A program made the translations under genes and the position numbers. Below the pieces are notes generated by a model, which was given only the letters and a program-made list of their open reading frames with translations, did not search any database and was not told the origin of the DNA. A DNA stretch of 64,000 nucleotides from Streptococcus sp. (GTDB taxonomy: Bacteria > Bacillota > Bacilli > Lactobacillales > Streptococcaceae): positions 17,798-81,797 of the forward strand of contig NZ_JAUMZR010000001.1 of assembly GCF_030528045.1 (NCBI RefSeq). Direction: 5' to 3'. This document shows positions 10,622 through 44,667 of the stretch, piece after piece; the first letter of the stretch is position 1, and each line of letters opens with the position of its first letter.

Positions 10622-10645
10622 ACTATAGGAAACAGGTACAAGCAA

Positions 10646-27003: not shown

Positions 27004-27030
27004 TCCTCTTCGAAAATCAGATTTAAAAAC

Positions 27031-27063
27031 AAAACGAACAAATATTATGTTTGTTCGTTTTTA
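27031..27063 (+). terminator. Rho-independent terminator after scrA
   Basis: aaacgaacaaa-tattat-gtttgttcgttttt. Confidence 0.75.
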
Positions 27064-27161
27064 CTTGGATGGTAAGATTTACAGAGGAAAATCTAAAATA
27101 TTGAGAAATCTAGCCCTTTAAAATGTGCTATAATAGAGAAAACAAAGATAAGAGGTTTATC

Positions 27162-28049
27162 ATGACAAAATTATATGGAAGCTTAGAAGCGGGCGGTACA
27201 AAGTTTGTCTGTGCTGTCGGAGATGAAAATTTTAATGTTGTAGAAAAAACACAGTTTCCTACAACAACTCCTATCGAGACGATCGATAAAACCATCGAAT
27301 TCTTTTCAAAATTCGATAATCTTGCAGGTCTTGCCATCGGTTCCTTCGGTCCTATCGATATCGATAAAAACTCAAAAACTTATGGCTTTATCACAACGAC
27401 TCCAAAACCTCACTGGGCAAATGTAGACATACTTGGTGCCCTCCGCCGCTCCCTCAACGTACCCATGTATTTCACCACAGACGTGAACAGCTCTGCCTAT
27501 GGTGAAGTGGTTGCTCGTAACAATGCTGGTGGCCGTATCGAAAACTTGGTTTACTACACGATCGGTACAGGGATCGGTGCAGGTGTTATCCAACGTGGTG
27601 AGTTTATCGGTGGTGTGGGTCACCCTGAGATGGGGCACTACTATGTGGCTAAACACCCAATGGATGTAGAAAAAGAATTTAACGGTGTCTGTCCATTCCA
27701 CAAGGGCTGTTTGGAAGGCTTTGCGGCTGGTCCAAGTCTCGAAGCCCGTACAGGTGTTCGTGGCGAAAACATCGAACTCAACAGTTCTGTCTGGGATGTT
27801 CAAGCCTACTATATCGCTCAGGCTGCGGTCAATGCTACAGTGACTTTCCGTCCAGACGTCATCGTCTTTGGTGGCGGGGTTATGGCCCAACAACACATGC
27901 TGGACCGTGTGCGTGAGAAATTCACAGCTCTTCTCAATGGCTACCTACCAGTACCAGACGTGCGTGACTACATTGTCACTCCAGCAGTCGCAGGCAATGG
28001 TTCTGCCACACTTGGAAACTTTGTCCTCGCTAAGAGTGTCGCAAAATAA
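27162..28049 (+). CDS. scrK: Fructokinase (ROK family)
   Basis: ROK motifs (LEAGGTKFVCAV...GIGAGVI...CPFHKGCLE). The ATG at 27162 lies downstream of an extended -10 element TGTGCTATAAT (27124-27134). Confidence 0.85.
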   Translation: MTKLYGSLEAGGTKFVCAVGDENFNVVEKTQFPTTTPIETIDKTIEFFSKFDNLAGLAIGSFGPIDIDKNSKTYGFITTTPKPHWANVDILGALRRSLNVPMYFTTDVNSSAYGEVVARNNAGGRIENLVYYTIGTGIGAGVIQRGEFIGGVGHPEMGHYYVAKHPMDVEKEFNGVCPFHKGCLEGFAAGPSLEARTGVRGENIELNSSVWDVQAYYIAQAAVNATVTFRPDVIVFGGGVMAQQHMLDRVREKFTALLNGYLPVPDVRDYIVTPAVAGNGSATLGNFVLAKSVAK

Positions 28050-28056
28050 AATAAAC

Positions 28057-28094
28057 AAAACATCCGCTTGGGAAACCAAACGGATGTTTTGTTT
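28057..28094 (+). terminator. Rho-independent terminator after scrK
   Basis: aaaacatccg...cggatgtttt followed by GTTT. Confidence 0.75.
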
Positions 28095-28104
28095 GACGAA
28101 AATG

Positions 28105-28265
28105 TTTTTGAGCCTTTCCTTAAGTGATGACGGACGGTAGCGACTTTCTTCGAAATTCCATACCTAAACTTTGAGCCTAATGTCTCAAAGTTTCCGAACA
28201 CCTGAAACCATTAGATTTCGGGTGTTTTTATCACGGCGGAAAGGCTAGGTAAGTCCTCGATTCAC
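28105..28265 (-). repeat. SPRITE-like small interspersed repeat, copy 2 (inverted relative to copy 1)
   Basis: It shares gtgatgacggacgg...tttgagcctaa.gtctcaaa.ttt...cacggcggaaag with the reverse complement of 3337-3500. It contains a terminator-like hairpin aacacc..gggtgtt followed by T-rich sequence. Confidence 0.55.
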
Positions 28266-28327
28266 TATCGAAAAGTTGGCATGATTTCCATACCAAAGTA
28301 TATTTAGTATCAGGCTATTTTCTATTC

Positions 28328-28945
28328 TCAAAACATCTGCCAGAAGAAATCAATAACATAGGTCAAACCATAAGTGTAAACCACTAGGGTAAAGGGTTTG
28401 GTCAGAATGATGATAATCATATAGCGTTTGAAGGTCATCTTGGTAAGGGCAGCCAGCATGCAGAGAAAGTCAGCTGGGCTAACAGGCCAGATCATCATAA
28501 AGATAAAGAACCGCTCGAAACGATTGCCCTTATCTAGCCAGTCGATGTATTTGTCATAGGTGCGCTTGCTGACGACGGACTGGACAAAGGCAGCTCCATA
28601 GAGACGCACGAGGTAAAAGATAATGGCACAGCCAATCACAATGCCGATATAGTTATAGATGGTCCCGATGATGTGGCCGTAAATAAAGACCCCAGCCACT
28701 GAGGTCAAAGCTCCCGGAATGATCGGAACGACGGTTTGTAGGATTTGTAAAAAGATAAAGAGTGGTGGTCCCCAAATCCCAGCTTGCTGGATAAAGGCCG
28801 ATAGGGTTTCCTTGGACTGTAAAACACCCGCCTGATAGGCCCAAATACAGAAAATCAAGGTGCCGACTCCCCCGACGATAGATGAAATATTGATGACTTG
28901 CTGTAGAAGGGGAGAAACAGCTTTCATTTGCTTATCCTGTGACAT
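28328..28945 (-). CDS. TVP38/TMEM64 (DedA-related) family membrane protein
   Basis: 205 aa multi-TM protein with a TVP38-like core (PGALTSVAGVFIYG...). Confidence 0.7.
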   Translation of the reverse strand: MSQDKQMKAVSPLLQQVINISSIVGGVGTLIFCIWAYQAGVLQSKETLSAFIQQAGIWGPPLFIFLQILQTVVPIIPGALTSVAGVFIYGHIIGTIYNYIGIVIGCAIIFYLVRLYGAAFVQSVVSKRTYDKYIDWLDKGNRFERFFIFMMIWPVSPADFLCMLAALTKMTFKRYMIIIILTKPFTLVVYTYGLTYVIDFFWQMF

Positions 28946-29077
28946 GTAAACTCCTCATAGATAGTATGATTCTACTATACCATATTTTGTGGAAAAAAAC
29001 TATCTGGATTATCTGACTGGCGAAATAAGTGTGGTAAAATGAGAATAAGAAAATGACGGTATAGAATGAGGGGTATC

Positions 29078-30878
29078 ATGTTAGGTTTAAACTTTAAAGG
29101 AAGCTGGCGCCAATATCAAAAACAGGTCTTGGATCGTTTTCAGGACTATCAAGCAGATGGTCATGTTCATCTAGTGGCTGCTCCAGGGTCTGGAAAGACA
29201 ACCATTGGTATCGAGCTAATCGCTCGTTTTGGCAACCCAGCCCTCATCTTAGTTCCGACTGTCACCATTCGTGAACAATGGGTAGATAGGATTCAAACTG
29301 CATTTCTAGGGGAGGGTCAGAGGCTTTCAGACCTCGTTTCCCAAAACTTAAAGGAGATGAAGACATTAACGATTGTGACCTATCAGGCTTTTCATAGCGC
29401 CATGAACCAATTGCAATCACAAGAAGATGGAGAAGCAGAAGATTTTGTGGGGTTTGATTTGCTTGCAAGCCTAAGAGCTCAGAAAGTTGCGACTCTTTGT
29501 TTGGACGAATGCCACCACCTGCGCAATGAATGGTGGAAAAGTCTGGAAGCCTTTCGCAAACAGTATGAACCGCTGCAAGTCATCTCCCTGACAGCGACAC
29601 CACCTTATGACAGCGAGCCTGAACTCTGGGAACGCTATATCCGTATGTGTGGGGAGATCGATCAAGAAATCACGGTACTTGAACTAGTCAAGGAAGACAC
29701 TCTTTGCCCTCATCAGGATTTTGTCTACATGTGTTCACCAACAGCTGAAGAGGCGGAACGTCTCAAACGGTTTGAGGAGACTAAGCGGGACTATATTCAT
29801 CACCTTATAGTCGATCCTGATTTTCAAACATTTGTAGTAGGGTCTAAGGTTCTCAAAGGGGATATTTCATCTGATTTGCTCTTAGAAGATCCCAAGTACT
29901 TGTCTGCTATGTTGATTTATATGCATTCTCAGGGGTTAACGATTCCTCCTTCTTTACAAAATTTACTGGGAACCCAGAACCTTCCAGCATTGACCTCCTA
30001 CTGGCTGGAGACGCTGTTGCAGAGCATACTCTATCAGACACCAGATTGGTATGAGGATCCAGATGGATATAGGAAAAAGTTAGAGGCTGACTTAAAGGCG
30101 CGTGGGTTGGTGGAAAAACGTCAGGTTTATCTGGTTAAGTCTAAGGCTTCTGACCAGCTTTTAACCCAATCTCTGGGGAAGTTGTCTGCCATTGCCGATA
30201 TCTTTTTGACGGAGTATGAGAGTCTAGGTCAGGAACTGAGACAGTTAGTACTAGCTGACTATATTCGCAAGGATTTTGCTGCCTATCTGGGAGATGATCA
30301 GGCAACCATTTCTCAGTTGGGGGGTTCTCCCTTATTTTGAAAGCATTCGTCGAAAAGCTCAGGAGCAAGAGATACCTGTGTCTTTGGCTGTTTTGACAGG
30401 TAGTGTCGTTATTTTGCCTACCGATGTGGCAGCAGAGTTGAAGGAGCTCTTGCCTCAGGTTCCTCTTAATTTCTCATCTATTGGTCACTTGGATCCAAAA
30501 GATTATGTGCAGGTTGGTTTTCCGAGCTCAGCTAAGGGAATCGTAGCGGCAGTGACGGAGCTTTTTCAACGAGGGCGGATTCAAGTCCTAGTCGGAACCA
30601 AATCTCTCCTCGGAGAGGGTTGGGATGCTCCTTGTGTCAATTCCCTAATCCTCGGAAGCTTTGTGGGGAGCTTTATGCTCAGTAACCAGATGCGTGGGCG
30701 TGCCATTCGTATCTGGCCGGGACATCCAGAAAAGACCAGTAACATCTGGCATCTGGTAGCCGTTCAAGCGCAGGCGCTTATCACTCTTCCTAGTGAGGAG
30801 CCTAGATCAGAGAGTAATCAGGATCTGCAGACCTTGTCGCGACGGATGGAGCATTTTCTTGGATTGGCCTATAAATAA
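29078..30878 (+). pseudogene. DEAD/DEAH-box superfamily-2 helicase, disrupted by a frameshift at a G6 tract
   Basis: Motif I VAAPGSGKT, motif II DECHH, motif III SLTATP and motif VI QMRGRAIR are spread across two overlapping frames (ORFs 29066..30340 and 30276..30878). The frame switch maps to the homopolymer GGGGGG at 30319-30324. Confidence 0.7.
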
Positions 30879-30888
30879 TAAGGAGAGT

Positions 30889-31716
30889 ATTGAGACCGGT
30901 TTGGATCGTTTGGATTTTCCAAAGCCCCCTTTTAAGAAAAAGCAAATTAGTGAGTACAATGAGCGAGTTAAGAGTCTCTCCAAGGATCGAGCAGGCTTGA
31001 GAAAAAAATGGCAGGAAGCTCTTGTCGTAGCAGATCAGTTCGAGATAGTTACAGAAGTCGCAACTCAAAAACAGAAAATTCCAGTCATGCTCTTGCTTGA
31101 TGCATTAAAATGGGTTCGCATGTCATTGCTCTTGTTAGCAGTGGATTTGTTGGTTTTGCTATTTAGACTGAGACTGATTGGTGTTTGGTGGCTTACGACA
31201 GTCTGTCTCATCTTTTTGGCCTTTGCATCTTGGCGCTACCTCCGCTATAAGAGTCCTTGTAAACGATTGCAGTCTCTGGGTGAGCAGATCCGAAAGGCTT
31301 TGCTAGATTCGGGGCATCTAACGGACAATCAATCCCGTGTTCAGGTAGAGGAGGACAAGGAAAACTACATGGTTTTCGCCTACCTCAAGGGAGGAAGCAT
31401 GAGGGACAAGGAGCTGTTTGCACAGACTGTGGGAGAGTTCTTTGCTCCAGTGGACAACCAGCGCTATCTCTTGAAGGCAGAGAAAGTCCGACAAGGTCAG
31501 TCACCTTACTATGCCGTGCCTAGTCTTTTTGAGAAGCGCAAGGAAGAAGCACAGAAATTCCTCGACTTTATGAGGCCAACTATCGGACGCTATCACCTCG
31601 TCTACACACGAACAGAGGCCGGACGGAAAACCCTTCTCGAAGCTCGTATCAAAGCTCTCTCCAATCAAAACGACCGTACCTTGACTAAGAAGAAGGTTAA
31701 AAATCGATTAGAGTAG
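30889..31716 (+). CDS. Hypothetical membrane-associated protein downstream of the helicase (or its C-terminal domain)
   Basis: The reading frame continues after the helicase's tandem TAA TAA stops and an AGGAGAG RBS, but no canonical start codon is well placed (ATT at 30889, TTG at 30901). Two predicted TM helices (LLLLAVDLLVLLF; WWLTTVCLIFLAFASW). Confidence 0.4.
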   Translation: METGLDRLDFPKPPFKKKQISEYNERVKSLSKDRAGLRKKWQEALVVADQFEIVTEVATQKQKIPVMLLLDALKWVRMSLLLLAVDLLVLLFRLRLIGVWWLTTVCLIFLAFASWRYLRYKSPCKRLQSLGEQIRKALLDSGHLTDNQSRVQVEEDKENYMVFAYLKGGSMRDKELFAQTVGEFFAPVDNQRYLLKAEKVRQGQSPYYAVPSLFEKRKEEAQKFLDFMRPTIGRYHLVYTRTEAGRKTLLEARIKALSNQNDRTLTKKKVKNRLE

Positions 31717-31727
31717 GGTAGGTAGCT

Positions 31728-31925
31728 ATTCGAAGTTTCGAAGATATGAATTTACTAAAGTTTATATGCATTCTAAACTTAGAATGGAAAGAAATACATA
31801 AATTTATGAGCATTCTAAGCTTCGAATAGTCTAGCTGAGAAAGTTTTGGGGTCTTCTAGTTTTCGAACAGTCATCTTTCTTAAAGTTTAGATGTATTCTA
31901 AGGCTAGAAAAGTTAAAATCTAAAA
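31728..31925. repeat. BOX-like tandem module repeat (boxB-like units)
   Basis: Three or more tandem imperfect units of about 45 bp (..tgcattctaaacttagaatgg.. / ..gagcattctaagcttcgaatag.. / ..gatgtattctaaggctagaaaag..) carrying cttcgaa palindromes. It marks the left edge of the accessory island. Confidence 0.5.
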
Positions 31926-32130
31926 ATAGTAAGAGTCTCTATCTGATAGACGGGTATGTTTCCAGTCAGATAGGGATTTTCTGTTTCTGAAATGACTGAT
32001 TTATCCTGTAAAAGTAAGAAATAGACTGAAAAAGTGCTATTGGGATGATAAAGTAGACAGTTGAGAGGATGAGTGTCCTAAGTTCTTTGCTATTTGTTAG
32101 AATTGTCTTATCAACTTAAAGGAGAAATCT

Positions 32131-32293
32131 GATGAAGAAAGATAAAGAAAATGAGGAAAGTATGCTATCGACACTTCCTCTATGGGGCCTCCTATTTTTG
32201 GTCTGTGTATTACTTCAAGTCTATGTAGGAAAGGATAGGCCTTTGATTCAACCTCCTAGACAAGGAAGCATTGTAAAAACAGATCAAAAATAG
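32131..32293 (+). CDS. Putative small membrane peptide (54 aa)
   Basis: An ORF below the track threshold: MKKDKENEESMLSTLPLWGLLFLVCVLLQVYVGKDRPLIQPPRQGSIVKTDQK. A GGAG-like RBS (aaggagaaatctg) is upstream. One hydrophobic helix. Confidence 0.3.
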
Positions 32294-32372
32294 GTCTATC
32301 TTCCAGAACTAATCCAGTCTTGGTTTGATAAAGAAAAAACTAAATGATTCGTTAAATAGAAAGGTTATCATC

Positions 32373-33134
32373 ATGACAAAAACATTCACTATCTGCCCTC
32401 TAAGCTACACAAACTCTACCAACCGCGAGTTTGAAAGTCTCATGGTAGATACGGGTCAACTACTAGAAGTTTTTGCCAAGGCACATAAGGACGAGCCTAT
32501 GTATAGCAAACATCTCGATTCCTTCAAGAGCAGGCTAGCAGACTTCCAAAGCCAACTCGCTATCGTCGAAAAGAAAGAGGAGACGAACCTGACCGAAGTT
32601 GATCGAAATCGTGACAGTGCCCTAGTCGGTCTCTTTACCCTTCATCGAGGATTTGCTAAGATTAAGGAGACCAAACTCAAAGAAGCCCATGAGACCTTGA
32701 AACCAGTCTTTGCCAAGTACAAGGACATCACCAAGCATAGCAATGGTGTGGAAACGGCAGAAATCAAGAGTCTGCTCAAAACCCTCAGTGAAGAACCCTA
32801 CCAAACAGCAGTTACTAGTCTAGGATTGACACCTATGCTGACGGAGGTGATCAGTGCGCAGGAGGAGTATGATAAGGTGGAAAGTCAGGCGCGTGCGCAT
32901 AAGTCTACCAAGGAAGTCGGCAAGACTAGACAAGTCCGTACCGAACTAACCAGCATCTACGACCTCTTTATGCGCTATACCGCAGCCAGCGCAGAAGCCT
33001 ATCCAGAAAAAGAACACCTGACCAAACTCCTCAAGGACCTGAACACAATCCGAGATAGCAAGCGCCGATTGAGTGGTTCGAGTAAGAAGGATAAGAAAGT
33101 GAAAGTAGAAGAAGCAGAACAAGTAGCAGGATAA
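32373..33134 (+). CDS. Hypothetical protein (253 aa, charged/alpha-helical)
   Basis: ORF track 32325..33134. The ATG at 32373 is preceded by GAAAGG. No recognisable catalytic motif. GC content is like the core genome. Confidence 0.5.
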   Translation: MTKTFTICPLSYTNSTNREFESLMVDTGQLLEVFAKAHKDEPMYSKHLDSFKSRLADFQSQLAIVEKKEETNLTEVDRNRDSALVGLFTLHRGFAKIKETKLKEAHETLKPVFAKYKDITKHSNGVETAEIKSLLKTLSEEPYQTAVTSLGLTPMLTEVISAQEEYDKVESQARAHKSTKEVGKTRQVRTELTSIYDLFMRYTAASAEAYPEKEHLTKLLKDLNTIRDSKRRLSGSSKKDKKVKVEEAEQVAG

Positions 33135-33225
33135 GAATAAACGTCTTTAGATATATTATTATCTAAAGGCGTTTTTTTGGTGGATTCGTGGTATAATTTT
33201 AGTATGAGATAATGGAGGAATAATA

Positions 33226-34230
33226 ATGAATATTCAATATTTCAATGTTTTTTTGTGTCGAAATGGTGAGAAGACAGATTATGATTTATCTAAGTTAATT
33301 GATAAAATTCGAGTATCTTCTTCTGTAGAAAGAACTGTAAAGTTAGGGAGTCAGCATACTATGTTTATGAATAATAGTAGAAACCCTTCAAGTAGTAAGA
33401 CGAGTGGTTCTTCTTTGGATGGTTTAGAGTATCTCCCTAGAAATAGGACAGTCTGGATTGGAAAGTATCGAAGTGAAAAACCATATGAGGGGAGGATAGG
33501 TGAAGAAGAAATTAAACAAATTGATGGAGACCTTTTCGAACCTAGTGTTTGTTTGATTATTCCTACATCGTATCTTTTTTTAATGGAGAGAAAGTTTTTA
33601 GGACCTTCAATAAACCAAATAGGAGAGTATTTATCAAGCTTTATAAAGAGTAACGATCCTAATGTAAAGTATTCGGTGAAATTTGAGCCTATGAAAACAG
33701 ATAGTTTAAAACCTTTGATAGAAGCTTCTGAGAGTATTAAATCAATCGTGATTCAGATTAAAAATGAAGGTTTTCAATTGTCAAGTTTATTTCCAGATAT
33801 TAATGATAGCAATAAAACACTATTAGAAAAGTTATTTGGTAATATGATTGAAGTGTCTGAAGAATTAGATATAAATACTACTACTGTAGCATTTAAGAAA
33901 AGTCGGTATAAAAGAGAAATGGATATAAAACGTGTTGATGGCATTTTAAAGTTATTAAACTCTTCAGATAAAAATTTAATTTCTGCAAAAGTTGAATTTT
34001 TAAATCCAGAGACACATAGATTTGATGAAGTGGATTTAAAGAAAGATGGTTTTTATATTTTGGAAAAAACTTCTTTAAAAACTGAGGATTTTGATAAATT
34101 AGCTAATCTAATGACAGCGCATTATTATGATGACCAGAATCGTAATAAAGATCTTTACTATACTTCGTTTGGTTCTTTGTTATCTGTTGATGAGAGTGAA
34201 TTTGAAATTGTAACTGAGAATAGCATATAA
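33226..34230 (+). CDS. Hypothetical protein (334 aa), AT-rich, island-borne
   Basis: Strong RBS GGAGG. GC is markedly lower than the flanking core. No identifiable domain. Confidence 0.55.
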   Translation: MNIQYFNVFLCRNGEKTDYDLSKLIDKIRVSSSVERTVKLGSQHTMFMNNSRNPSSSKTSGSSLDGLEYLPRNRTVWIGKYRSEKPYEGRIGEEEIKQIDGDLFEPSVCLIIPTSYLFLMERKFLGPSINQIGEYLSSFIKSNDPNVKYSVKFEPMKTDSLKPLIEASESIKSIVIQIKNEGFQLSSLFPDINDSNKTLLEKLFGNMIEVSEELDINTTTVAFKKSRYKREMDIKRVDGILKLLNSSDKNLISAKVEFLNPETHRFDEVDLKKDGFYILEKTSLKTEDFDKLANLMTAHYYDDQNRNKDLYYTSFGSLLSVDESEFEIVTENSI

Positions 34231-34259
34231 AAATCCAAAACTAGAAAGGAGATGATGTC

Positions 34260-34802
34260 ATGCTTAAATTTATTGATAAATATTTTTGGTGGAGTTTATC
34301 AATCATAATTGTATTAATTGTTGCAGTGTCTCTCTTTTTAGGAAATTATCTAGAGTTATATGATTGGTTTTACAAAAATGCCTATACAAATAATGCGAAT
34401 TTAGTGACCATTTCAACAGTTTTTATTGGTATTTATTTTTCTTTATACGGTTTTTTATTGAGTTCAAATACAAATTCCCTTATATCAAAACTTAAGTTAA
34501 AAGAATATAAGAGACTAGTCTCAATAGTTAATAGAGGATTTATATCTAGTTTTATTATCGTTATATTTTCTTTTTTTAATGAAAATATCTATAATTGGGT
34601 AAGTGAAATTTATATACTGTTCTTGTTTTTTATTTTTCTCTTACTTATTGGTTCTGCAATTCAAATAGCTATTTATTTTACATTACTTTTTAGATATGAT
34701 TTGAATAAAAAATATAATAGTTTTGATGAAGATATAAAAAAAGAAATTCTAGATGACGAATTGCGTAAAAAGTTAAAACAATTTTTAGATAGAGAGTTAT
34801 AA
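34260..34802 (+). CDS. Hypothetical 4-TM membrane protein (180 aa)
   Basis: RBS AAAGGAG. Four hydrophobic helices and a charged C-terminal tail. The gene ends 4 nt before the hsdS start. Confidence 0.55.
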   Translation: MLKFIDKYFWWSLSIIIVLIVAVSLFLGNYLELYDWFYKNAYTNNANLVTISTVFIGIYFSLYGFLLSSNTNSLISKLKLKEYKRLVSIVNRGFISSFIIVIFSFFNENIYNWVSEIYILFLFFIFLLLIGSAIQIAIYFTLLFRYDLNKKYNSFDEDIKKEILDDELRKKLKQFLDREL

Positions 34803-34808
34803 GAGTTG

Positions 34809-35465
34809 ATGAAAAGAATGATACCTAAAATTATTTTTAATAGAGAAAAGAAAGATTGGATTAAAAGACCTTTATTATCTAATATAGAAAAAATCATAGA
34901 TTACAGGGGTAGAACACCTAAAAAATTAGGTTTAAATTGGAGTGATACAGGTTATCTAGCTCTATCTGCTTTAAATGTAAAGAATGGCTATATTGATTTC
35001 AAGGCCACTGCCAATTATGGAGATCAAGAATTGTATGAACGATGGATGGGAGATAATCATCTTCATAAAGGACAAGTTGTTTTTACTACTGAGGCACCGA
35101 TGGGTAACGTTGCACAGATTCCTAATGATGATTTGTATATTCTAAGTCAACGTACGATTGCCTTTGAAGTTAAACGTGATTTAATTCGGGAAGATTTTTT
35201 AGCCACTTTATTGCGTAGCCAAAAAATATTTAATGAATTAACTTCTTTATCTAGCGGAGGAACTGCAAAAGGAGTTAGTCAAAAATCTTTATCAAATCTC
35301 AAAGTTTGTTTGCCCACATCATTAGAAGAACAATCCGCTATTGGCACCCTTTTCCGCATCCTTGACGACCTTCTAGCAAGCTACAAGAATACCAATCTCT
35401 CAAGGCGACCATGCTTTCTAAGATGTTTCCAAAAGCTGGACAGACAGCACCTGAGATTCGTTTAG
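34809..35465 (+). CDS. hsdS: Type I restriction-modification specificity subunit, N-terminal half (TRD1 plus central conserved region)
   Basis: A TRD-like region followed by the conserved LPTSLEEQSAIGTLFRILDDLLAS central repeat. The frame is lost at about 35372-35380. Confidence 0.7.
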   Translation: MKRMIPKIIFNREKKDWIKRPLLSNIEKIIDYRGRTPKKLGLNWSDTGYLALSALNVKNGYIDFKATANYGDQELYERWMGDNHLHKGQVVFTTEAPMGNVAQIPNDDLYILSQRTIAFEVKRDLIREDFLATLLRSQKIFNELTSLSSGGTAKGVSQKSLSNLKVCLPTSLEEQSAIGTLFRILDDLLASYKNTNLSRRPCFLRCFQKLDRQHLRFV

Positions 35466-36037
35466 ATGGATTTGAAGGTGAGTGGGAAATAAAGAAATTT
35501 AAGAGCATAAGTAATAAAAGAGGGAAATCGAACAGCAAAGGGTATGATTATCCAGCATATTCTGTTAGCAATCAGAGTGGGTTGATTCCTCAATCGGAAC
35601 AATTCGAAGGAAGTCGTTTAGAAAATCTTGAAAAAACGTCATATAAGATAGTTGAACCAAACGAGTTCGCATATAATCCAGCTCGTATAAATGTCGGGTC
35701 CATTGCATTTAATGATCTACATGAAACGGTAATAGTTAGTTCTTTGTATGTCATTTTTTCGTTAGATAACTCAATGGATAACAACTACGCGCTACTGTTT
35801 ATAAAATCACCAGAGTTCAATAAAGAAGTTAGAAGAAATACGGAGGGGAGTGTGAGGGAATATCTTTTTTATGAAAACTTCGCAAATGTTCGGATTCCAA
35901 TACCTCCGTCACTCGAAGAACAACGTGCCATCGGCTCCTATTTCTCTAACTTCGATAACCTCATCAACTCTCACCAAGAAAAAATTTCTCAGCTTGAGAC
36001 ACTGAAAAAGAAACTCTTGCAGGATATGTTTATATAA
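35411..36037 (+). CDS. hsdS: Type I restriction-modification specificity subunit, C-terminal half (TRD2 plus distal conserved region)
   Basis: KMFPKAGQTAPEIRLDGFEGEWE marks the canonical start of TRD2. The C-terminal conserved repeat PPSLEEQRAIGSYFSNFDNLINSHQEKISQLETLKKKLLQDMF is present. It lies in a -1 frame relative to the first half. Confidence 0.7.
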   Translation: MLSKMFPKAGQTAPEIRLDGFEGEWEIKKFKSISNKRGKSNSKGYDYPAYSVSNQSGLIPQSEQFEGSRLENLEKTSYKIVEPNEFAYNPARINVGSIAFNDLHETVIVSSLYVIFSLDNSMDNNYALLFIKSPEFNKEVRRNTEGSVREYLFYENFANVRIPIPPSLEEQRAIGSYFSNFDNLINSHQEKISQLETLKKKLLQDMFI

Positions 36038-36052
36038 AAGGAGTGCAGTAAA

Positions 36053-36967
36053 ATGTCAAAAGTAAAATCAGAAACTCTAAAGAAAGAAGAAAAACCTGTA
36101 GTAGCAATTTGCTATGATTTTGATACAACGCTGTCTCCTGATGATATGCAAGCCCAAGGATTTATACAGAAGCTTGGGTATGAAATCAGTGAATTTTGGA
36201 AGAAATCCAATGGTTTTGCCAAGGCTAATAATATGGACAAGAACCTTGCCTATATGTTTACGATGAAAACAGAATCTGCAGGAAAGGTTTTATATACAAA
36301 GACAGAGTTAGCCAAGTTTGGTTCAGAGGTAGAACTATTCCCAGGAGTCAAAGACTGGTTCGAACGCATTCGAAAATATGGTGAAGATAACGGAGTTATT
36401 GTTGAGCATTATATCATTTCATCCGATTTGAAAGAAATGATAGAGGGGACTTCAATAGCTAAAAATGGTGCTTTTAAGAAAATTTATGCGACTTCTTTTT
36501 ATTGTGATGAAAGTGGGGTTGCGGTCTGGCCAGCTCAAGTAGTGAATTACACCAATAAGACTCAATTTCTTTTTAGAATTACCAAAGGTATTTTAGATGT
36601 CAATGACGATGCAGTGAATGATTTTTTTGCTGAAAGTGATTTACGAGTTCCTTTTAGAAATATGGTTTACTTAGGGGATAGTGATACAGATATTCCATGT
36701 ATGAAGCTAGTCAAAACAAGAGGTGGCTACTCTATCGGTGTATTCAATCCAAAAACCAATGACAGAAAGAAAGTTCACAAAATGACTCAGGATAATCGTA
36801 TTGATTATTTTGTTCCAGCTGACTACTCAGAAAATACAGAACTTGATAAACTAATCAAGACGATTATTAAAAAGGCGGCTTATAATGAATTGTTAGAAAA
36901 CAAGAAAAATGCTGATAAACTTGAAGCAAACTTAAGAAAGCGAAAAAGAAATCCAAAACTAAGATAA
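36053..36967 (+). CDS. HAD-superfamily hydrolase (phosphatase), island-borne
   Basis: Motif I DxDxT is present as VAICYDFDTTL (D22-F-D24-T-T). Motif IV GDxxxD is present as YLGDSDTDIP. A lysine-rich C-terminal tail. AT-rich. Confidence 0.65.
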   Translation: MSKVKSETLKKEEKPVVAICYDFDTTLSPDDMQAQGFIQKLGYEISEFWKKSNGFAKANNMDKNLAYMFTMKTESAGKVLYTKTELAKFGSEVELFPGVKDWFERIRKYGEDNGVIVEHYIISSDLKEMIEGTSIAKNGAFKKIYATSFYCDESGVAVWPAQVVNYTNKTQFLFRITKGILDVNDDAVNDFFAESDLRVPFRNMVYLGDSDTDIPCMKLVKTRGGYSIGVFNPKTNDRKKVHKMTQDNRIDYFVPADYSENTELDKLIKTIIKKAAYNELLENKKNADKLEANLRKRKRNPKLR

Positions 36968-37041
36968 TTATTTGCTAAATTAAAAGAATACCGATTAAGA
37001 TTTATCGATGCTAGTATATTTATATACATAAAGGAGTTACC

Positions 37042-37797
37042 ATGGTATCTGTAACACAACGTATAAAAGAAATTAACCAACCTCGAGGTGGTTATCTGAC
37101 CATCAAGTTATTTTCAGTAGAGCAGTTCGAAGATCACAGAGTTCTGCACGCTGTAGAGTCTGTATCTCCTAGTTTAGTGGGGATTTGTGTGGACTACTTG
37201 ACTCGTTTTATGAAAGGGGCAGAAGTCCGTGATGCTTTCAGAATTTCTCTCATGGGAGCTCAGATGGTTGGTATGGGAGACCTAGCAGAAGCACTACTCG
37301 ATTTGGTGACAGGATTGGATGACTTATCGATAGAAAGTGCTTGTCGTCTAGCGTCCTTTGATGTCGTTTTTCGTGCGGGGAAACAGTATTATAAGCCTTT
37401 TGAGGAAATTTCAGTGGATGCCGAAACGGTAGAGAATATTCGTATCATGGTAGAGCGAAGTCTTTGCTTTTTCGACCTCTATGGTCCTTTGGTAAAGGAT
37501 GGCTTTCATTTTCTTGGAGGTTATACAGACACGATTGATAAGGGTGATGGAGATTTTCTGACCAAGGATACATTATGGGATTTTAAGGTGACTAAAACAG
37601 CTCCTAATAAAGACCACACACTACAAGTCCTTGTATACTATATCATGGGTTTACATTCCTTTGATCCTGACTTCCTTTCTATCGAAAATCTTGGATTTTA
37701 TAACCCTCGAAAAAATATCGTTTACCAACTTCCGGTCTCTTCTATTCCTATAGATTTGATTCGAACGATTGAAAATGAAGTGATTTGCTATAAATGA
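37042..37797 (+). CDS. Hypothetical protein (251 aa) with a possible PD-(D/E)xK-like motif
   Basis: Good RBS AAAGGAG. The segment GDGDFLTKDTLWDFKVTK resembles the D..(D/E)xK core of restriction-endonuclease-like nucleases. This is a tentative call. Confidence 0.45.
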   Translation: MVSVTQRIKEINQPRGGYLTIKLFSVEQFEDHRVLHAVESVSPSLVGICVDYLTRFMKGAEVRDAFRISLMGAQMVGMGDLAEALLDLVTGLDDLSIESACRLASFDVVFRAGKQYYKPFEEISVDAETVENIRIMVERSLCFFDLYGPLVKDGFHFLGGYTDTIDKGDGDFLTKDTLWDFKVTKTAPNKDHTLQVLVYYIMGLHSFDPDFLSIENLGFYNPRKNIVYQLPVSSIPIDLIRTIENEVICYK

Positions 37798-37840
37798 TTG
37801 CTTGTTTAAAAATAAATTGCAAAACTTAGAAAGAAACATT

Positions 37841-39442
37841 ATGGAAACAACACAAACTTCCCAGTCGCTCTACCAAGCCCTGTGGAACTCAGCGGATGTT
37901 CTCCGCTCCAAGATGGATGCTAATGACTATAAGTCCTATCTCTTGGGCATGGTCTTTTATAAGTATCTGTCAGACAAGATGCTCTTTTTCGTGGCTGAGA
38001 CTATGGAAGAGGGGACAGATAGTCTTGAGGATACACTTGAGGTCTATCGTAACTACTACGAGGATGCGGATACTCATGAGGATCTGGTCTCTGTCATGAA
38101 CGATGAACTCAACTATATCATCAAGCCAGACTTGACCTTTACGGCTTTGGTAGCGCATGTCAATGAGGGGACTTTTCAGCTAGAAGATCTGGCTCAAGGT
38201 TTTCGTGATATCGAGCAGAGTGACGACCTTTATGAAAACCTCTTTGAAGATATCGACCTTTACTCTAAAAAGCTAGGGGCGACTCCGCAAAAGCAAAACC
38301 AAACGGTAGCAGCGGTCATGAAAGAGTTGGCTGTGCTAGATGTGGCTGGTCATGCTGGTGATATGTTGGGGGATGCCTATGAGTATCTGATCGGTCAGTT
38401 TGCGACTGACTCGGGTAAGAAAGCTGGTGAGTTCTATACGCCTCAGCCTGTTGCCAAGCTCATGACGCAGATTGCCTTTTTGGGTCGTGAGGACCAGCAA
38501 GGATTTACCATCTATGATGCGACTATGGGTTCTGGATCTCTCTTGCTCAATGCCAAGAAATACTCTCATAAACCGCAAACGGTTGTCTACTTTGGTCAGG
38601 AGCTCAATACCTCCACTTATAACTTGGCTCGGATGAACATGATCCTACACGGCGTTCCAGTTGAGAATCAATTTCTCCACAATGCCGATACCTTGGATGA
38701 AGACTGGCCGACACAGGAACCGACCAACTTTGATGGGGTTCTCATGAATCCTCCATACTCTGCCAAGTGGTCTGCAAGCTCTGGCTTCCTGAATGATCCT
38801 CGTTTCTCTCCTTTTTGGAAACTGGCACCACAATCCAAGGCTGATTTTGCCTTTCTCTTGCATGGTTACTACCATCTCAAGCAAGATAATGGAGTTATGG
38901 CTATCGTCCTTCCCCACGGTGTTCTTTTCCGTGGCAATGCGGAGGGAACCATTCGTAAGGCCTTGTTAGAAGAAGGAGCTATTGATACTGTTATCGGTCT
39001 ACCTGCCAATATCTTCTTTAATACCAGCATTCCGACCACGGTCATCATTCTCAAAAAGAATCGAACTAATCGTGATGTTTACTTTATCGATGCCTCTAAG
39101 GAGTTTGATAAAGGGAAAAACCAAAATATCATGACGGATGCCCATATCGACAAGATTCTGGAAGCCTACAAGTCTCGTGAGGAGATTGATAAGTTTGCCC
39201 ACCTAGCAAGCTATGAAGAAATTGTCGAAAATGACTATAACCTCAATATCCCTCGCTATGTAGACACCTTTGAGGAAGAAGAAGTCGAGCCGCTGACAGA
39301 CATCGTCAGCAAAATTAAAGACACAAATAAAGCTATCGAAAGCCAAACAGCTTCCCTACTTGAAATGCTGAACCAACTCCACGGAACCACACCAGAAGCC
39401 GATGCCGAACTCAAAGAGTTTTTGAAAAACTTTAAAGGGTGA
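37841..39442 (+). CDS. hsdM: Type I restriction-modification N6-adenine DNA methyltransferase subunit
   Basis: HsdM N-terminal domain (LWNSADVLRSKMDANDYKSYLLGMVFYKYLSD), an AdoMet motif (DATMGSGSLL) and the catalytic NPPYS motif (LMNPPYSAKW). The ATG at 37841 is preferred over the ORF-track TTG at 37802. Confidence 0.9.
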   Translation: METTQTSQSLYQALWNSADVLRSKMDANDYKSYLLGMVFYKYLSDKMLFFVAETMEEGTDSLEDTLEVYRNYYEDADTHEDLVSVMNDELNYIIKPDLTFTALVAHVNEGTFQLEDLAQGFRDIEQSDDLYENLFEDIDLYSKKLGATPQKQNQTVAAVMKELAVLDVAGHAGDMLGDAYEYLIGQFATDSGKKAGEFYTPQPVAKLMTQIAFLGREDQQGFTIYDATMGSGSLLLNAKKYSHKPQTVVYFGQELNTSTYNLARMNMILHGVPVENQFLHNADTLDEDWPTQEPTNFDGVLMNPPYSAKWSASSGFLNDPRFSPFWKLAPQSKADFAFLLHGYYHLKQDNGVMAIVLPHGVLFRGNAEGTIRKALLEEGAIDTVIGLPANIFFNTSIPTTVIILKKNRTNRDVYFIDASKEFDKGKNQNIMTDAHIDKILEAYKSREEIDKFAHLASYEEIVENDYNLNIPRYVDTFEEEEVEPLTDIVSKIKDTNKAIESQTASLLEMLNQLHGTTPEADAELKEFLKNFKG

Positions 39443-39535
39443 TGGGCTTAATTGATTCGCTCATAATTCTCTCGTTTTTAAAAATACAACTTTATTTCCA
39501 TATTTCCTGGAAACAGATAGATAGCAAGGAGAAAG

Positions 39536-40111
39536 ATGGAACAAACTAACCAAAAATCCCAGTGCCAGCAACTCTGGGCTAGAAACAAATACCTCGTTTT
39601 GAGCCATTCTAGCAATATTTACAATGAGATTCGCCAATACTTGAAGAATGAACAGGTGGAGCTGAGTCAGGTTTAAGAGATGATTGACCGTGCCTGTCAA
39701 ATCCCAGAACACAATGGTCAGGTTTGCAATGCCTTCCAGCATGTTTGGGGCTATTTCAAAAAGAAAGCGACAGATGCCGAGCGTAAGGACTATATGCTCT
39801 TACTGGATCGCTACCGCTTTGGTCAGGCTTCCAAGGAAGACTTGATCGCTAAAACTCGAGACTTGCTTGATCGCTATCCAAATACCTACTTGCAACATTC
39901 TACTTTACTGAAAGGAGACTCCCATGAGACTTTGGCACGAGGCCTTGATTTCACAACTTCCCCGTCCGCAGCTTTTAGGCCAACATCGAGAGTGCTGTGC
40001 CCTGCGTGGCAATGGTTGGGGCAGAAAGCATGCGACGGTGGACTATGTCTTTACTCACTCGCCCTATCACCTCTATGCTTATCATCGCTTGATCATGGAG
40101 GAGATGGATAA
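39536..40111 (+). pseudogene. DUF1722 (YbgA-like) protein gene with an in-frame TAA nonsense codon
   Basis: A 47-aa ORF (MEQTNQKSQCQQLWARNKYLVLSHSSNIYNEIRQYLKNEQVELSQV) and ORF 39680..40111 lie in the same frame, separated only by TAA at 39675-39677. Together they align to the DUF1722 region of E. coli YbgA (ARHKYLLMAHSQQGYREL...NVLQHLLGYFKRHLSADER..YL). Confidence 0.55.
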
Positions 40112-40289
40112 CCGTGGCTACAATGTCAGTCCAGAGTGGTTGGACAAGAACTACCGTGGTAAGACTTGCTCTTCTTATCAAGACTTAGCAGAGGAGAAGC
40201 TAGGCAAGCCCATCTATAGTGAGCATGATGCAGGATACTATGAGGAGTGTCTGGCTAATCTCCGTGAGAAAGGGATTAAGCTGAAGTAA
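39924..40289 (+). CDS. Conserved hypothetical protein (TIGR02328-like), overlapping the DUF1722 3' region
   Basis: Strong RBS AAAGGAGA 5 nt upstream of ATG. The N-terminus MRLWHEALISQLPRPQLLGQHRE is typical of a small streptococcal family often found next to DUF1722 genes. Confidence 0.55.
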   Translation: MRLWHEALISQLPRPQLLGQHRECCALRGNGWGRKHATVDYVFTHSPYHLYAYHRLIMEEMDNRGYNVSPEWLDKNYRGKTCSSYQDLAEEKLGKPIYSEHDAGYYEECLANLREKGIKLK

Positions 40290-40442
40290 GAGTCAGGATT
40301 ATCTCTAATTTATAACTCTTCTCATAATTTTTTCGAATAATAAAAATGAGACCTTTAGAATGATTCTAAGGTCTTCTTTTTATGGGTATTAGGATTTACT
40401 TTCAATAACTTTTAAGTTATAATTAAATTGAAAAGAGGTTGC

Positions 40443-40811
40443 TTGGTGCATACAATTTACTTCTATAAGGACAAAAATGGAAATGAGCCAGTATTGGATT
40501 ATATGAGAGAATTGGCTAGTCGTAAAAGTAAGGATAGTCGCATAAAACTCAATAAACTAAACGACTATATCGAGCTACTTAATCAGCATGGGACTAGAGC
40601 TGGTGAACCCTATATTAAACATTTAGAAGATGAGATATGGGAACTAAGACCTCTGAGGGATAGGATTTTATTTATAGCGTGGGTTGATGGGAGTTTTGTT
40701 CTCTTACATCATTTTGTTAAAAAGACTCAGAAAACTCCTAGGAGAGAAATTGAAAAAGCCAAGCGTGAACTGAAGGACATAAAAGAAAGAGGGTTAAGTG
40801 ATGAAGAATAG
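40443..40811 (+). CDS. Type II toxin-antitoxin system RelE/ParE-superfamily toxin (HigB/Gp49-like)
   Basis: [22 protein letters not shown]...[13 protein letters not shown]...[28 protein letters not shown] matches the Gp49/HigB-like pattern. The upstream-toxin, downstream-HTH order is typical of higBA. The start (TTG at 40443 or GTG at 40446) is uncertain. Confidence 0.65.
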
Positions 40812-41094
40812 TGCCATTGGAAGTAATTGGAAGGATGTTCGGACAGAACTCTTTACCAAGGAAGAAATTCTTGAAAGCGATATGCGAGTGGCTATTATGA
40901 GTGAGTTAATTGAGGCTAGGCATGAGCAAGGTATCAGTCAGAAAAAGCTAGAGGAACTCAGTGGAGTAAGCCAGCCTGTTATAGCTAGGATGGAGACAGG
41001 AAAGACCAGTCCTCAGTTGGATACGGTCTTAAAAGTTTTAGCCAGTTTAGGAAAGACACTAGCAGTCGTCCCACTTGAACAGGAAAAAAGTTGA
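40798..41094 (+). CDS. XRE-family HTH antitoxin (HigA-like)
   Basis: HTH sequence [27 protein letters not shown]. Overlaps the toxin gene by 14 nt. Confidence 0.65.
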
Positions 41095-41302
41095 TAGAGA
41101 TGAGATTACTTGGTTGGCTAAAATCATCCACTGGACAATTTCATCTCCCGTCCGTACTTTTTCAGGGAAATATCAAAAATACCAAAGGAAAATCAACCTA
41201 TAGTCTTTTCTAATAACAAGCCATAGTCACTGATGAGAATCGTCAATAGCTCGTTTGAGCATTTCAACTAAAATACAGCCACCAAACAAGCTATACAAAG
41301 GA

Positions 41303-41333
41303 TTTGAGACGATGGTCTCAAGTCTTTTTCTTT
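41303..41333 (+). terminator. Hairpin/terminator-like element in the metE leader
   Basis: tgagac-gatg-gtctca followed by AGTCTTTTTCTTTTGTTTG. Confidence 0.35.
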
Positions 41334-41348
41334 TGTTTGAAAAAGTGA

Positions 41349-41365
41349 TATAGTTTCAAACTATA
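41349..41365 (+). promoter_or_regulatory. Met-box (MtaR/MetR-type operator) upstream of metE
   Basis: Perfect 17-bp palindrome TATAGTTTCAAACTATA about 85 nt upstream of the metE start. It matches the streptococcal methionine-regulon box consensus TATAGTTtnaAACTATA. Confidence 0.6.
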
Positions 41366-41447
41366 TCAAAGCCTAATTATTTACAATTATACAGACAGTT
41401 TCTTTTCTGTTAAGATAGTTTCAACAACAAATTTTGGAGGACACATC

Positions 41448-43697
41448 ATGTCAACTACAATCATCGGTTTCCCTCGTTTGGGCGAATTCCGCGAATTGAA
41501 ATTTACAACTGAAAAATACTTTAGAAAAGAAATCTCAGAAGAAGAACTTTTAGCAGCAGCAAAAGACTTGCGTGCCAAACACTGGAACATTGTCAAAGAA
41601 AAAGGCATTACTGAAATTCCATCAAATGACTTTTCTCACTATGACAACTTCCTAGATGCTGCTTTCCTCTTTAACGTGGTGCCAGCTTCTGTTCAAAACT
41701 TGGAATTATCAGAACTTGAACGCTACTTTGCTTTGGGACGTGGTTACCAAGGAGAAAAAGGGGACGTTCGTGCCCTTCCGATGAAGAAATGGTTCAACAC
41801 CAACTACCACTACATCGTTCCTAAATTTGAAAAAGACACTCAAGTTAAATTGGCTGGTCACAAGATCTTTGATGAGTTCCAAGAAGCCAAAGAACTTGGT
41901 CTCAACACTCGTCCTGTTCTTGTAGGTCCATTCACTTTCCTTCAATTATCAGATTTTGAAGAAGGCGTGAAAGCAGAAGACTTCGTAGATAGCTTAGTGG
42001 CTGCATACCAAGAAGTTTTTGCTAAATTGGCTGAGCTTGGTGCGACTCGTATCCAATTGGACGAAGCAGCTCTTGTCAAAGATTTGACAGCTGAAGAAAA
42101 AGCTCTCTTCTTGAACCTCTACAACAAACTCTTGGCTGACAAAAAAGGTCTTGAAGTCTTGCTTCAAACTTACTTCGGTGACGTTCGTGACGTCTACTCT
42201 GACCTTGTGAACTTGCCAGTAGATGCCATTGGTTTGGACTTCGTTGAAGGTAAAAAAACTCTTGAACTCGTTAAAGGTGGTTTCCCAGCTGATAAGACTC
42301 TCTATGCAGGTATTGTCAATGGTAAAAACATCTGGCGAAACAACTACGAAAAGAGCTTGGCTGTTCTTGAGCAAATCCCAGCTGAAAACATCGTATTGAC
42401 AAGCTCATGCTCACTTCTTCATGTGCCATTTACAACTGCTAACGAAGAATTTGAACCAGCTATCTTGAACCACTTTGCCTTTGCAGTTGAAAAATTGGAA
42501 GAACTTCGTGACTTGGATGCTATCCGAAATGGTCAAGGTGCAGAAGCACTTGCAGTTAACAAAGAACTCTTTGCGACTGAGCGTGTGGGTGAAAATGCAG
42601 AACTTCGTGCGCGCATCGCTGGATTGACTGACGCAGACTACACTCGTTTGCCAGCCTTTGCAGAACGTGAAGCTATCCAAGAAGAAGCCTTTAAACTTCC
42701 AGCTCTTCCAACAACAACCATCGGTTCATTCCCTCAAACTAAGGAAGTCCGTGCCAAACGTTTGGCTTACCGTAAGGGTGAATTGTCACAAGAAGAGTAC
42801 GATGCCTTTCTTGCTGAAACCATCGACGAATGGATCAAATGGCAAGAAGAAGTTGGATTTGACGTGCTTGTACACGGTGAGTTTGAGCGTAACGACATGG
42901 TTGAGTACTTCGGTCAAAACTTGTCAGGTTACCTCTTCTCTAAGAATGGTTGGGTACAATCTTACGGTATGCGTGGGGTGAAACCACCAATCATCTGGGG
43001 TGACGTCACTCGTCTTAACCCTATCACTGTCAAATGGTCTAGTTACGCACAAAGCCGTACTGACAAACCTGTTAAAGGTATGTTGACAGGACCTGTTACC
43101 ATCCTTAACTGGTCATTCCCACGTGAAGACATCTCTATCAAGGACTCAACTCTTCAAATCGCCCTTGCTATTAAGGATGAAGTTCTTGACCTTGAAGCTG
43201 CAGGTGTGAAAATCATCCAAATCGACGAGGCTGCTCTTCGTGAGAAATTGCCACTTCGTCGTAGCGACTGGTACGAAGACTACCTTGACTGGGCTATTCC
43301 AGCCTTCCGCTTAGTACACTCTACAGTAGCGCCAGATACTCAAATTCACACTCACATGTGTTACTCAGAATTTACAGATATCATCCCAGCCATCGACAAC
43401 ATGGATGCGGACGTTATTTCCTTTGAAGCAAGCCGTTCAAACCTTGAAATCTTGGACGAACTCAAAGCGAAAAACTTCCAAACAGAAGTGGGACCTGGGG
43501 TTTACGATATCCACTCACCTCGTGTGCCAAATGAAGGCGAAATCGACCACACAATCGATGCTATTCTTGCCAAAGTTCCAAGCAAGAAAGTTTGGATCAA
43601 CCCTGACTGTGGTTTGAAAACACGTGGTATTCCAGAAACAAAAGAAAGCTTGATCCGCCTTGTCGAAGCAGCAAAAGCTGCGCGTGAGAAATTATAA
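41448..43697 (+). CDS. metE: 5-methyltetrahydropteroyltriglutamate-homocysteine S-methyltransferase (cobalamin-independent methionine synthase)
   Basis: 749 aa two-domain MetE with Zn-binding residues (H..C..E..C context: HTHMCYSEF...DCGLKTR). Confidence 0.95.
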
Positions 43698-43785
43698 GAT
43701 AGAATTTCTCTCTTGACACTGACTGATCAAGGAACTGCTTGGCCCTAGCTGGCTCAGCAATCATGAAATCAAAAAGAAAAGGATA

Positions 43786-44658
43786 ATGACTATGTCACGC
43801 CAAACTCCGTCACTTTCATTTGAAGTGTTCCCTCCAAACCCAGCTGTGGGTAATGATAAAATTATTTCAGCCTTGCAGGATATGCGGGAGCTGACACCGC
43901 ACTTTATCAGTGTGACTGCCAGCAATAATAAATTTAATATCAAGGAAACAACGGTTCGTTTGGCTGACTTTATCCAGAATGACTTGGCGATTCCAACCAT
44001 TGCCCACTTGCCAGCTATCTATCTGACCAAGGAAAAAGTTGCTGAAACCATTGCAGACTTGGATAAGGTTGGTGTACAGAAAATCTTGGCCCTGCGTGGG
44101 GATATTATCCCTGATGTGGAACCACAAAAGGATTTCCGATACGCAACGGATTTGATCGAGTTCATCAAGGAACAAGCTCCTCACTTTGATATTATTGGCG
44201 CTTGCTACCCAGAGGGGCATCCTGACTCGCCAAACCAAATCTCAGATATTCAAAATCTCAAGAAGAAAGTGGATGCAGGCTGTTCCAGCCTTGTAACGCA
44301 ACTTTTCTTTGACAATGAGCGTTTCTACGATTTCCAAGACAAGTGTACCTTGGCAGGGATTGATGTTCCTATTCATGCGGGAATCATGCCCATTCTTAAC
44401 CGTAACCAAGCGCTTCGTCTCTTGAAGACTTGTGAGAATATCCACCTTCCACGCAAATTCAAAGCCATCTTAGACAAGTATGAGCATGACCCTGAGTCGC
44501 TCAGAGCAGCAGGACTTGCCTATGCAGTGGACCAGATCGTGGACTTGGTAACCCAGGATGTTGCTGGTGTGCATCTCTACACCATGAACAATGCTGAAAC
44601 AGCAAAATACATCCACCAAGCAACCCATGCCTTGTTTAACCATCAGTCTTTAGGATAA
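43786..44658 (+). CDS. metF: 5,10-methylenetetrahydrofolate reductase
   Basis: MTHFR family (SFEVFPP...ALRGD). Immediately downstream of metE. Confidence 0.9.
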   Translation: MTMSRQTPSLSFEVFPPNPAVGNDKIISALQDMRELTPHFISVTASNNKFNIKETTVRLADFIQNDLAIPTIAHLPAIYLTKEKVAETIADLDKVGVQKILALRGDIIPDVEPQKDFRYATDLIEFIKEQAPHFDIIGACYPEGHPDSPNQISDIQNLKKKVDAGCSSLVTQLFFDNERFYDFQDKCTLAGIDVPIHAGIMPILNRNQALRLLKTCENIHLPRKFKAILDKYEHDPESLRAAGLAYAVDQIVDLVTQDVAGVHLYTMNNAETAKYIHQATHALFNHQSLG

Positions 44659-44667
44659 TAAAAAGCA

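Follow-up and report, generated by a model that had tools for sequence, protein, structure and literature searches.

Organization of the R-M island

The window, i.e. the whole 64-kb stretch of DNA analysed here, lies on a 119,913-bp NCBI contig of a Streptococcus sp. metagenome-assembled genome (MAG), and contains an R-M island with a split hsdS gene, an intact hsdM gene and two pairs of cargo genes. In related genomes, the locus is flanked by ROK and VTT-domain genes on one side and metE on the other, and the genes are arranged in the order of a helicase (877-881 aa), hsdR, cargo, hsdS, cargo, hsdM, a DUF1722 gene, a pyrimidine-dimer glycosylase gene, a Gp49/HTH pair and metE. The HsdR proteins of the relatives (996-997 aa) possess HSDR_N, ResIII and EcoR124_C domains, and the system is therefore classified as type IC-like.

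In the window, hsdR is missing. The stop codon of the upstream helicase gene (31714-31716) abuts the last ~10-15 bases of hsdR and the downstream intergenic sequence, which together mark a deletion scar at positions 31707-31735. Alignment against the S. oralis locus L002 matched window positions 28318-31717 to L002 513-3907, and window positions 31707-31980 to L002 6949-7222, with a loss of ~3.05 kb that consists of the intergenic region and the 997-codon hsdR (compare L002 3908-6958). The endpoints of this deletion have the microhomology GAGT(A/G)GG in common. A tblastn search with HsdR gave no match anywhere in the 64-kb window, so that of a complete type I system the linked hsdM is present and hsdR is absent; the original prediction had spoken of an orphan methyltransferase, and within the window this description holds, hsdR having been cleanly deleted.

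The hsdM gene (37841-39442, forward strand) is intact and encodes a protein of 533 aa with HsdM_N and N6_Mtase domains and an NPPY motif, which shares 95% identity with S. oralis HsdM over residues 1-533, and 95-99% identity with the orthologues in 80 species representatives. Two cargo regions, both recognized by PADLOC, lie on the same strand. The first (33226-34802), located between the deleted hsdR and hsdS, comprises the candidate defence genes PDC-M67A (DUF6731) and PDC-M67B (a 180-aa membrane protein), whereas the second (36053-37797), between hsdS and hsdM, comprises PDC-S34 (HAD-like, 304 aa) and PDC-S61 (251 aa); all four genes are intact. Compared to S. oralis L002, the HAD-like gene is short and a KAP NTPase gene is absent, which we considered as a further deletion and rejected, as it is a natural and common arrangement: the 304-aa HAD-like gene fully covers the 284-position PADLOC model of PDC-S34, and the PDC-S34/PDC-S61 pair is found at 96-97% identity in at least six species representatives (L020, L025, L033, L041, L048 and L053).

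Other genes of the island are broken. The ResIII/DEAD helicase (29066-31716, forward strand) is a pseudogene that falls into three ORFs, with a +1 frameshift in a G run at ~30319 (G6 versus G5) and a +4 insertion (ATAA) at ~30871. The DUF1722 gene (39536-39937, forward strand) is interrupted by an in-frame stop codon, a Q codon having changed to a stop at 39674-39676; it has moreover lost the stop codon at its usual end, and the frame continues to 40111, into the region of the overlapping pyrimidine-dimer glycosylase gene. By contrast, the flanking housekeeping genes have lengths equal to those of their relatives, and large same-strand ORF overlaps are confined to the island. Since several genes of the island are broken and the flanking genes are intact, the disabling lesions are concentrated in the R-M island.

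Two further observations concern the edges of the island. The intact S. oralis orthologue of the helicase gives weak PbeA-like matches in PADLOC. Directly downstream of the island, window positions 40428-41094 encode a Gp49-family (HigB-like) toxin and an HTH_3 antitoxin, a pair that some relatives carry and others lack.

Layout of the split hsdS gene

A single hsdS gene spans window positions 34806-36037 on the forward strand and is read as two overlapping frames. ORF1, in frame 0, starts at TTG 34806, ATG 34809 or ATG 34818, ends at the stop codon 35463-35465, and has a length of 219 aa. Its homologous part (34818-35389) covers the N-terminal motif and TRD1 and runs through the opening 22 residues of the central helix (LEEQ...ASYK), including the start of the central repeat LEEQSAIGTLFRILDDLLASYK. 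It is followed by an out-of-frame tail (35388-35465) of 25 nonsense codons, NTNLSRRPCFLRCFQKLDRQHLRFV, and a TAG stop codon. The tail is basic, contains proline and cysteine, and has no counterpart in the intact homologues with which it was compared.

The 3' fragment (35390-36037) lies in frame 2 and encodes the remainder of the central helix from YQSLK onwards, TRD2 and the distal conserved helix in full. This frame stays open between 35366 and the stop codon at 36035-36037, and carries YQSLKATMLSKMFPKAGQTAPEIRLDGFEGEWE, TRD2 and the distal repeat LEEQRAIGSYFSNFDNLINSHQEKISQLETLKKKLLQDMFI. The first ATG of ORF2 is at 35411 (208 aa), and the next one, at 35423, gives the 204-aa version annotated by NCBI. 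ORF1 and ORF2 have been deposited as two separate “restriction endonuclease subunit S” proteins (MDO4658798/9, WP_303203952/3).

Both fragments match the Pfam family Methylase_S (PF01420), ORF1 with an E value of 4.2e-13 and ORF2 with an E value of 1.7e-12 over profile positions 3-167 of 168. In tblastn, residues 1-191 of an intact S. oralis HsdS aligned to 34818-35390 with 94% identity, and residues 193-410 aligned to the 3' fragment with 92% identity. Thus, the split gene still encodes the two TRDs of a two-TRD HsdS, each of which matches Methylase_S; what it lacks is a single polypeptide of ~400 aa that contains both the complete central and the complete distal helix. The extent of the Methylase_S match was discarded as a gauge of the truncation of ORF1; it is uninformative because intact homologues likewise end at profile position 156 of 168.

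The translations of the ORFs and the Pfam matches agree with the original prediction that hsdS is split into two ORFs by a net -1 frame change in the central repeat. The sequence given there for this repeat is right except for one residue, which is A rather than G (KLQEYQSLKATML). The motif KLQE, which had been taken for the expected continuation in the second frame, turned out to be the frame-2 reading of bases that encode SYK(N) in frame 0, and the true frame-2 homology begins at YQSLK.

A 13-base deletion at the junction

An alignment to intact hsdS homologues had been suggested as a check, and we performed it at the DNA level with 12 related alleles (L001, L002 and L006-L015). It placed the lesion at the junction 35389|35390, where 13 bases (..GACAATCTCGCCAAC..) are absent from the window and retained in all 12 alleles, producing the net -1 frame change. 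The intact junction is AGCTACAAGGACAATCTCGCCAACTACCAATCT, compared to AGCTACAAGAA and TACCAATCT on the two sides of the 13 missing bases in the window. All 12 alleles read AGCTACAAGGA(C/T)AAT(C/T)TCNNCAACTACCAA, whereas the window reads AGCTACAAGAA-TACCAA. Accordingly, the net -1 change is not a single-base event. The gap can be described either as one contiguous 13-nt deletion plus one substitution (G-to-A or C-to-A), or as a 12-nt in-frame loss (DNLA) plus the loss of one C. Simple microhomology was rejected as its origin, as none yields the observed sequence in one step.

The earlier statement that no homopolymer lies at the junction is correct, and it extends to tandem repeats and to notable inverted repeats nearby, the inverted repeats near the junction being short and weak ones only. 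A search with the repaired protein retrieved full-length proteins of 410 aa, one of them named from Streptococcus oralis, with identities of 89-93% over 99% of the length.

Position of the lesion in the protein fold

In type I enzymes, the pair of conserved helices of HsdS is what the two HsdM subunits grip. We modelled the intact homologue P0001 by AF2 from an alignment of 47 sequences, with a mean pLDDT of 84. In this model, the two long helices expected of an HsdS are a central one at residues 169-206 and a distal one at residues 370-408. ORF1 stays in frame no further than residue 190 and thus retains 22 of the 38 residues of the central helix, whereas ORF2, when read from its first ATG, keeps 4 of these 38 residues and the whole 39-residue distal helix. 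The lesion therefore falls midway along the central coiled-coil helix of HsdS. The nearest solved structures by sequence are the HsdS proteins of PDB 1YF2, 3OKG/5YBB and 7VRU.

hsdS in related loci

A scan with the HsdM protein, using one genome per species, yielded 80 mitis-group loci at ≥95% identity. Among these loci, 75 were assessable for the state of hsdS: 72 possess a full two-TRD gene, two an in-frame half-size gene of 187 aa (L022 and L032), and one a gene split inside TRD2 (L038), while the remaining five have too little upstream sequence to judge. An hsdR gene was seen in 69 of the 80 loci; of the other 11, ten have too short an upstream sequence to tell, and L066 shows no hsdR at this site. 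The hsdS gene of L051, first listed as a candidate broken gene, is intact and encodes 402 aa.

Several of these loci deserve a description of their own. In L066 (positions 4804-11599; S. mitis ColumbLawn), an intact 397-aa hsdS and hsdM occupy this chromosomal position, but the stretch from the VTT-domain gene to hsdS contains no hsdR; it would be a naturally R-less, methylase-only variant. In L038 (8135-9361; S. mitis BCA11), the break in hsdS falls within TRD2, and the entire central repeat is left in its ORF1. Outside the species scan, a metagenome contig from ERR13927396 (L007, 1128-2399) carries a disrupted hsdS, in which CAA is changed to TAA at the LEEQ motif.

The cargo also varies. 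The slot between hsdR and hsdS of the mitis-group type IC operon is occupied by PDC-M67A/B, by a two-gene insert or by a gene for a 1318-aa P-loop protein. The two-gene insert, found in L022 and L032, encodes proteins of 441 and 607 aa, guessed from their sequences to be a SIR2-like protein and an ATPase, respectively. The slot between hsdS and hsdM contains a fused AriAB (PARIS) in 18 loci, PDC-S34 and PDC-S61 in 10, and both of the latter together with a KAP NTPase in 7; examples of cargo are found at L008 11279-13147, L022 4383-7524 and L024 981-4937. Altogether, this operon is nearly always found intact in mitis-group streptococci, where it acts as a scaffold into which candidate defence genes are swapped.

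The natural half-size gene is located at positions 7535-8098 of both L022 and L032, which come from S. infantis SPAR10 and Streptococcaceae AF77-01CM03A. Its helix is a hybrid of the central and distal helices (EEQSAIGSLFRNLDDL and INSHQEKISQLETLKKKLLQDMFI), which indicates an origin by in-frame recombination between the two conserved repeats. Its protein cluster has 21 members, and the 15 listed are all 182-187 aa in length except for one 68-aa fragment. Exact copies of the 187-aa sequences are found on 70 and 53 contigs, and the hsdR and hsdM genes alongside are intact. Since this half-size subunit is widespread beside intact hsdR and hsdM, a one-TRD subunit can evidently work in this type IC HsdS family, and a palindromic target would be predicted for the S. 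infantis system.

The split allele is private to the MAG

We then compared the two ORFs with protein clusters and with a metagenome collection. The 90%-identity cluster of ORF1 consists of ORF1 itself and one full-length protein of 422 aa. The half-size members of the ORF2 cluster are that of the MAG, one from L006 and one from L007. Neither of the latter two is an independent occurrence of the same split: the L006 protein is a contig-end artefact with an intact junction, and the L007 protein results from the different lesion at LEEQ described above, in an allele with a different TRD1. A 24-mer spanning the deletion junction had 0 matches in the metagenome collection, compared to at least 120 matches of the intact-junction pattern. 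By these comparisons, the split allele is a singleton that is private to the MAG, and neither other strains nor other samples conserve a half-size form of the ORF2 type.

A probable young pseudogene in a decaying island

The original prediction left the choice between a pseudogene and two half-S subunits. Our results favour the former, given the cut helix, the private allele and the damaged island, and speak against a pair of half-S subunits, although ORF2 has a plausible architecture for one. We therefore propose that the split hsdS is most probably a recently formed pseudogene in a decaying type IC defence island.

In the proposed course of events, one lineage of an oral mitis-group Streptococcus lost 13 bases in the middle of the central-helix region of its type IC hsdS. 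The frame of the normal start now encodes TRD1, 22 of the 38 helix residues and the 25-residue nonsense tail, whereas TRD2 and the distal helix are left in another frame, without a dedicated ribosome-binding site. Because the helix pair joins the two TRDs and is gripped by HsdM, the normal M2S1 methyltransferase with its bipartite target presumably could not be made. The system would by then have lost, or have been losing, its restriction function, as judged from the deleted hsdR, the two frameshifts of the helicase and the nonsense codon of DUF1722, so that nothing would select for hsdS. We infer both the loss of methyltransferase activity and the order of these events.

Apart from the deletion, neither half of hsdS has a further stop codon or frameshift. 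As the halves are otherwise undamaged and hsdM is intact, either the lesion is young or some methylase function is still selected. Most differences between the hsdS halves and their relatives predate the deletion and are allelic or recombinational.

The latter possibility leads to an alternative in which ORF2 alone, translated from ATG 35411 or ATG 35423, acts as a half-size S subunit that dimerizes via its distal helix, binds two HsdM subunits and recognizes a palindromic target of two TRD2 half-sites. We regard this as possible but unlikely. By sequence, ORF2 combines one TRD and one complete helix in a single ORF, namely an N-terminal motif (PEIRLDGFEGEW), a complete TRD and the complete 39-residue conserved helix; ORF1, with its truncated helix and nonsense tail, does not. 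This layout is that of the natural 187-aa half-S of the orthologous S. infantis system, whose hsdR and hsdM are intact; moreover, engineered half-S dimers methylate palindromes (PMC6158711), and an intact hsdM is available to ORF2 in the window. Against this, ATG 35411 is internal to ORF1, whose stop codon follows 52 nt downstream, and the anti-SD pairing energy at the start of ORF2 is -3.8 kcal/mol, compared to medians of -3.1 across the background of all ATGs and -8.5 across 33 genes in the window; ~40% of all ATGs pair as well or better. The weak SD does not exclude translation, because the native starts of hsdS and hsdM are equally weak (-3.4 to -4.1 kcal/mol). Nevertheless, neither the protein clusters nor the metagenome junction search revealed a conserved stand-alone gene of the ORF2 type, the natural 187-aa half-S arose via in-frame repeat fusion rather than a frameshift, and for NgoAV, the only natural split that has been studied, an active product of the downstream hsdS2 is reported to be lacking (PMC9577141).

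On the sequence evidence, a residual methylase that acts on a palindrome thus seems rather improbable. The same holds for the wider scenario in which the island, after the loss of hsdR, would be a pure epigenetic module, where ORF2 is made at a low level from its internal ATG and its homodimer directs HsdM to a new palindrome; we consider it doubtful. If it were true, a frameshift, instead of the usual in-frame recombination of repeats, would have created a new methylation specificity, and ORF2 would be a small natural case in which truncation alters specificity, something for which the principle has been established before.

It is very unlikely that the real gene is continuous and that the split arose through an error in sequencing or assembling the MAG. 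The sequence is metagenome-assembled, the central conserved region is common to many co-occurring hsdS alleles and is thus a place where assembly graphs branch, and the G6 versus G5 run in the helicase could be an error. On the other hand, a 49,926-bp Logan contig of SRR24915844, possibly derived from the same reads, is 100% identical to the NCBI contig over window positions 27001-45000 (18 kb), including the split. Each k-mer of a de Bruijn contig should, in addition, have to occur in the reads, and the lesions cluster in the island while the flanking genes are intact. A 13-base gap without repeats is atypical of short-read or homopolymer error, and we thus take the split allele as probably real, with a small reservation.

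Still less credible is a model in which both ORFs are translated and their products come together again, without a covalent link, as a two-TRD subunit that keeps the original bipartite target. The circular, two-fold symmetric architecture of HsdS tolerates truncations, fusions and domain swaps (PMC6158711), and both TRDs are undamaged here. However, ORF1 has lost 16 of the 38 central-helix residues, i.e. the half which pairs with the N-terminal half of the distal helix, and carries the nonsense tail in their place; besides, ORF2 has no evident translation signal, and the two-ORF arrangement is not conserved.

Pneumococci have inverting hsdS loci. NgoAV provides an hsdS that is split by a poly-G-switched frameshift (PMC9577141). 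Nevertheless, a regulated switch is the least probable explanation of all, since phase variation was rejected for want of a homopolymer, tandem repeat or meaningful inverted repeat at the site, tblastn found no second hsdS copy in the 64-kb window, programmed ribosomal frameshifting to restore a full-length S was rejected as the reading from 35366 to 35465 has no canonical slippery heptamer, and any frameshift would still leave the protein without 4 helix residues or with nonsense residues.

WP_303203952 and WP_303203953 are fragments of one disrupted gene, which matters mainly for annotation. Counts of active type I systems should leave this locus out, and counts of active methyltransferases probably should as well. 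The finding is an ordinary one, as hsdS genes with frameshifts or truncations are a familiar sight, and there is no hint of a new mechanism.

Comparison with known systems

The closest counterparts are the intact type IC-like HsdS proteins of mitis-group streptococci, such as S. oralis P0003 (410 aa, GCA_026782665.1), which are encoded at the same site (between ROK/VTT and metE), have the same TRD1 and TRD2, and share 89-93% identity. Their loci also have neighbours in common with the window, with PDC-M67A/B upstream and hsdM downstream. Compared to these, the window allele has lost 13 bases of the central-helix region, which leaves two ORFs, and its hsdR is deleted, whereas the relatives carry an HsdR of 996-997 aa.

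In NgoAV of Neisseria gonorrhoeae, hsdS1 and hsdS2 are split by a frameshift in a phase-variable poly-G tract; HsdS1, which comprises 208 of 410 aa, is active on GCAN8TGC, and the downstream hsdS2 yields no active protein (PMC9577141). The two systems are alike in that a gene of the 410-aa type is present as two ORFs owing to a frameshift in mid-gene, with an upstream product of ~208 aa in length. However, the NgoAV split is reversible and its HsdS1 is active, whereas in the window there is no such tract, 13 bases are gone, the helix is cut and hsdR is absent.

An engineered “M 1/2 S” of S. aureus CC398-1, cut where the central conserved region ends, methylates the palindrome ACCN5GGT (PMC6158711, which also cites earlier truncations of the EcoDXXI and EcoR124I HsdS proteins). 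N-terminal half-S proteins that are active, engineered or natural, retain the central conserved region in full (PMC6158711, PMC9577141). Similar to the engineered half-HsdS proteins, which dimerize, ORF2 has a composition of one TRD and one conserved helix. Nevertheless, the engineered proteins are N-terminal halves with a complete central region and a proper start, whereas ORF1 ends in the middle of the helix, and ORF2 is a C-terminal half without a translation signal of its own.

The half-S of S. infantis SPAR10 (EJG87912, WP_025170538) resembles ORF2 in belonging to the same family and locus and in possessing the N-terminal motif, one TRD and a full helix that ends in ...KKKLLQDMFI. It differs from ORF2 in being a single in-frame gene with its own start just after the upstream gene, in which one TRD has been removed and the helix is a hybrid.
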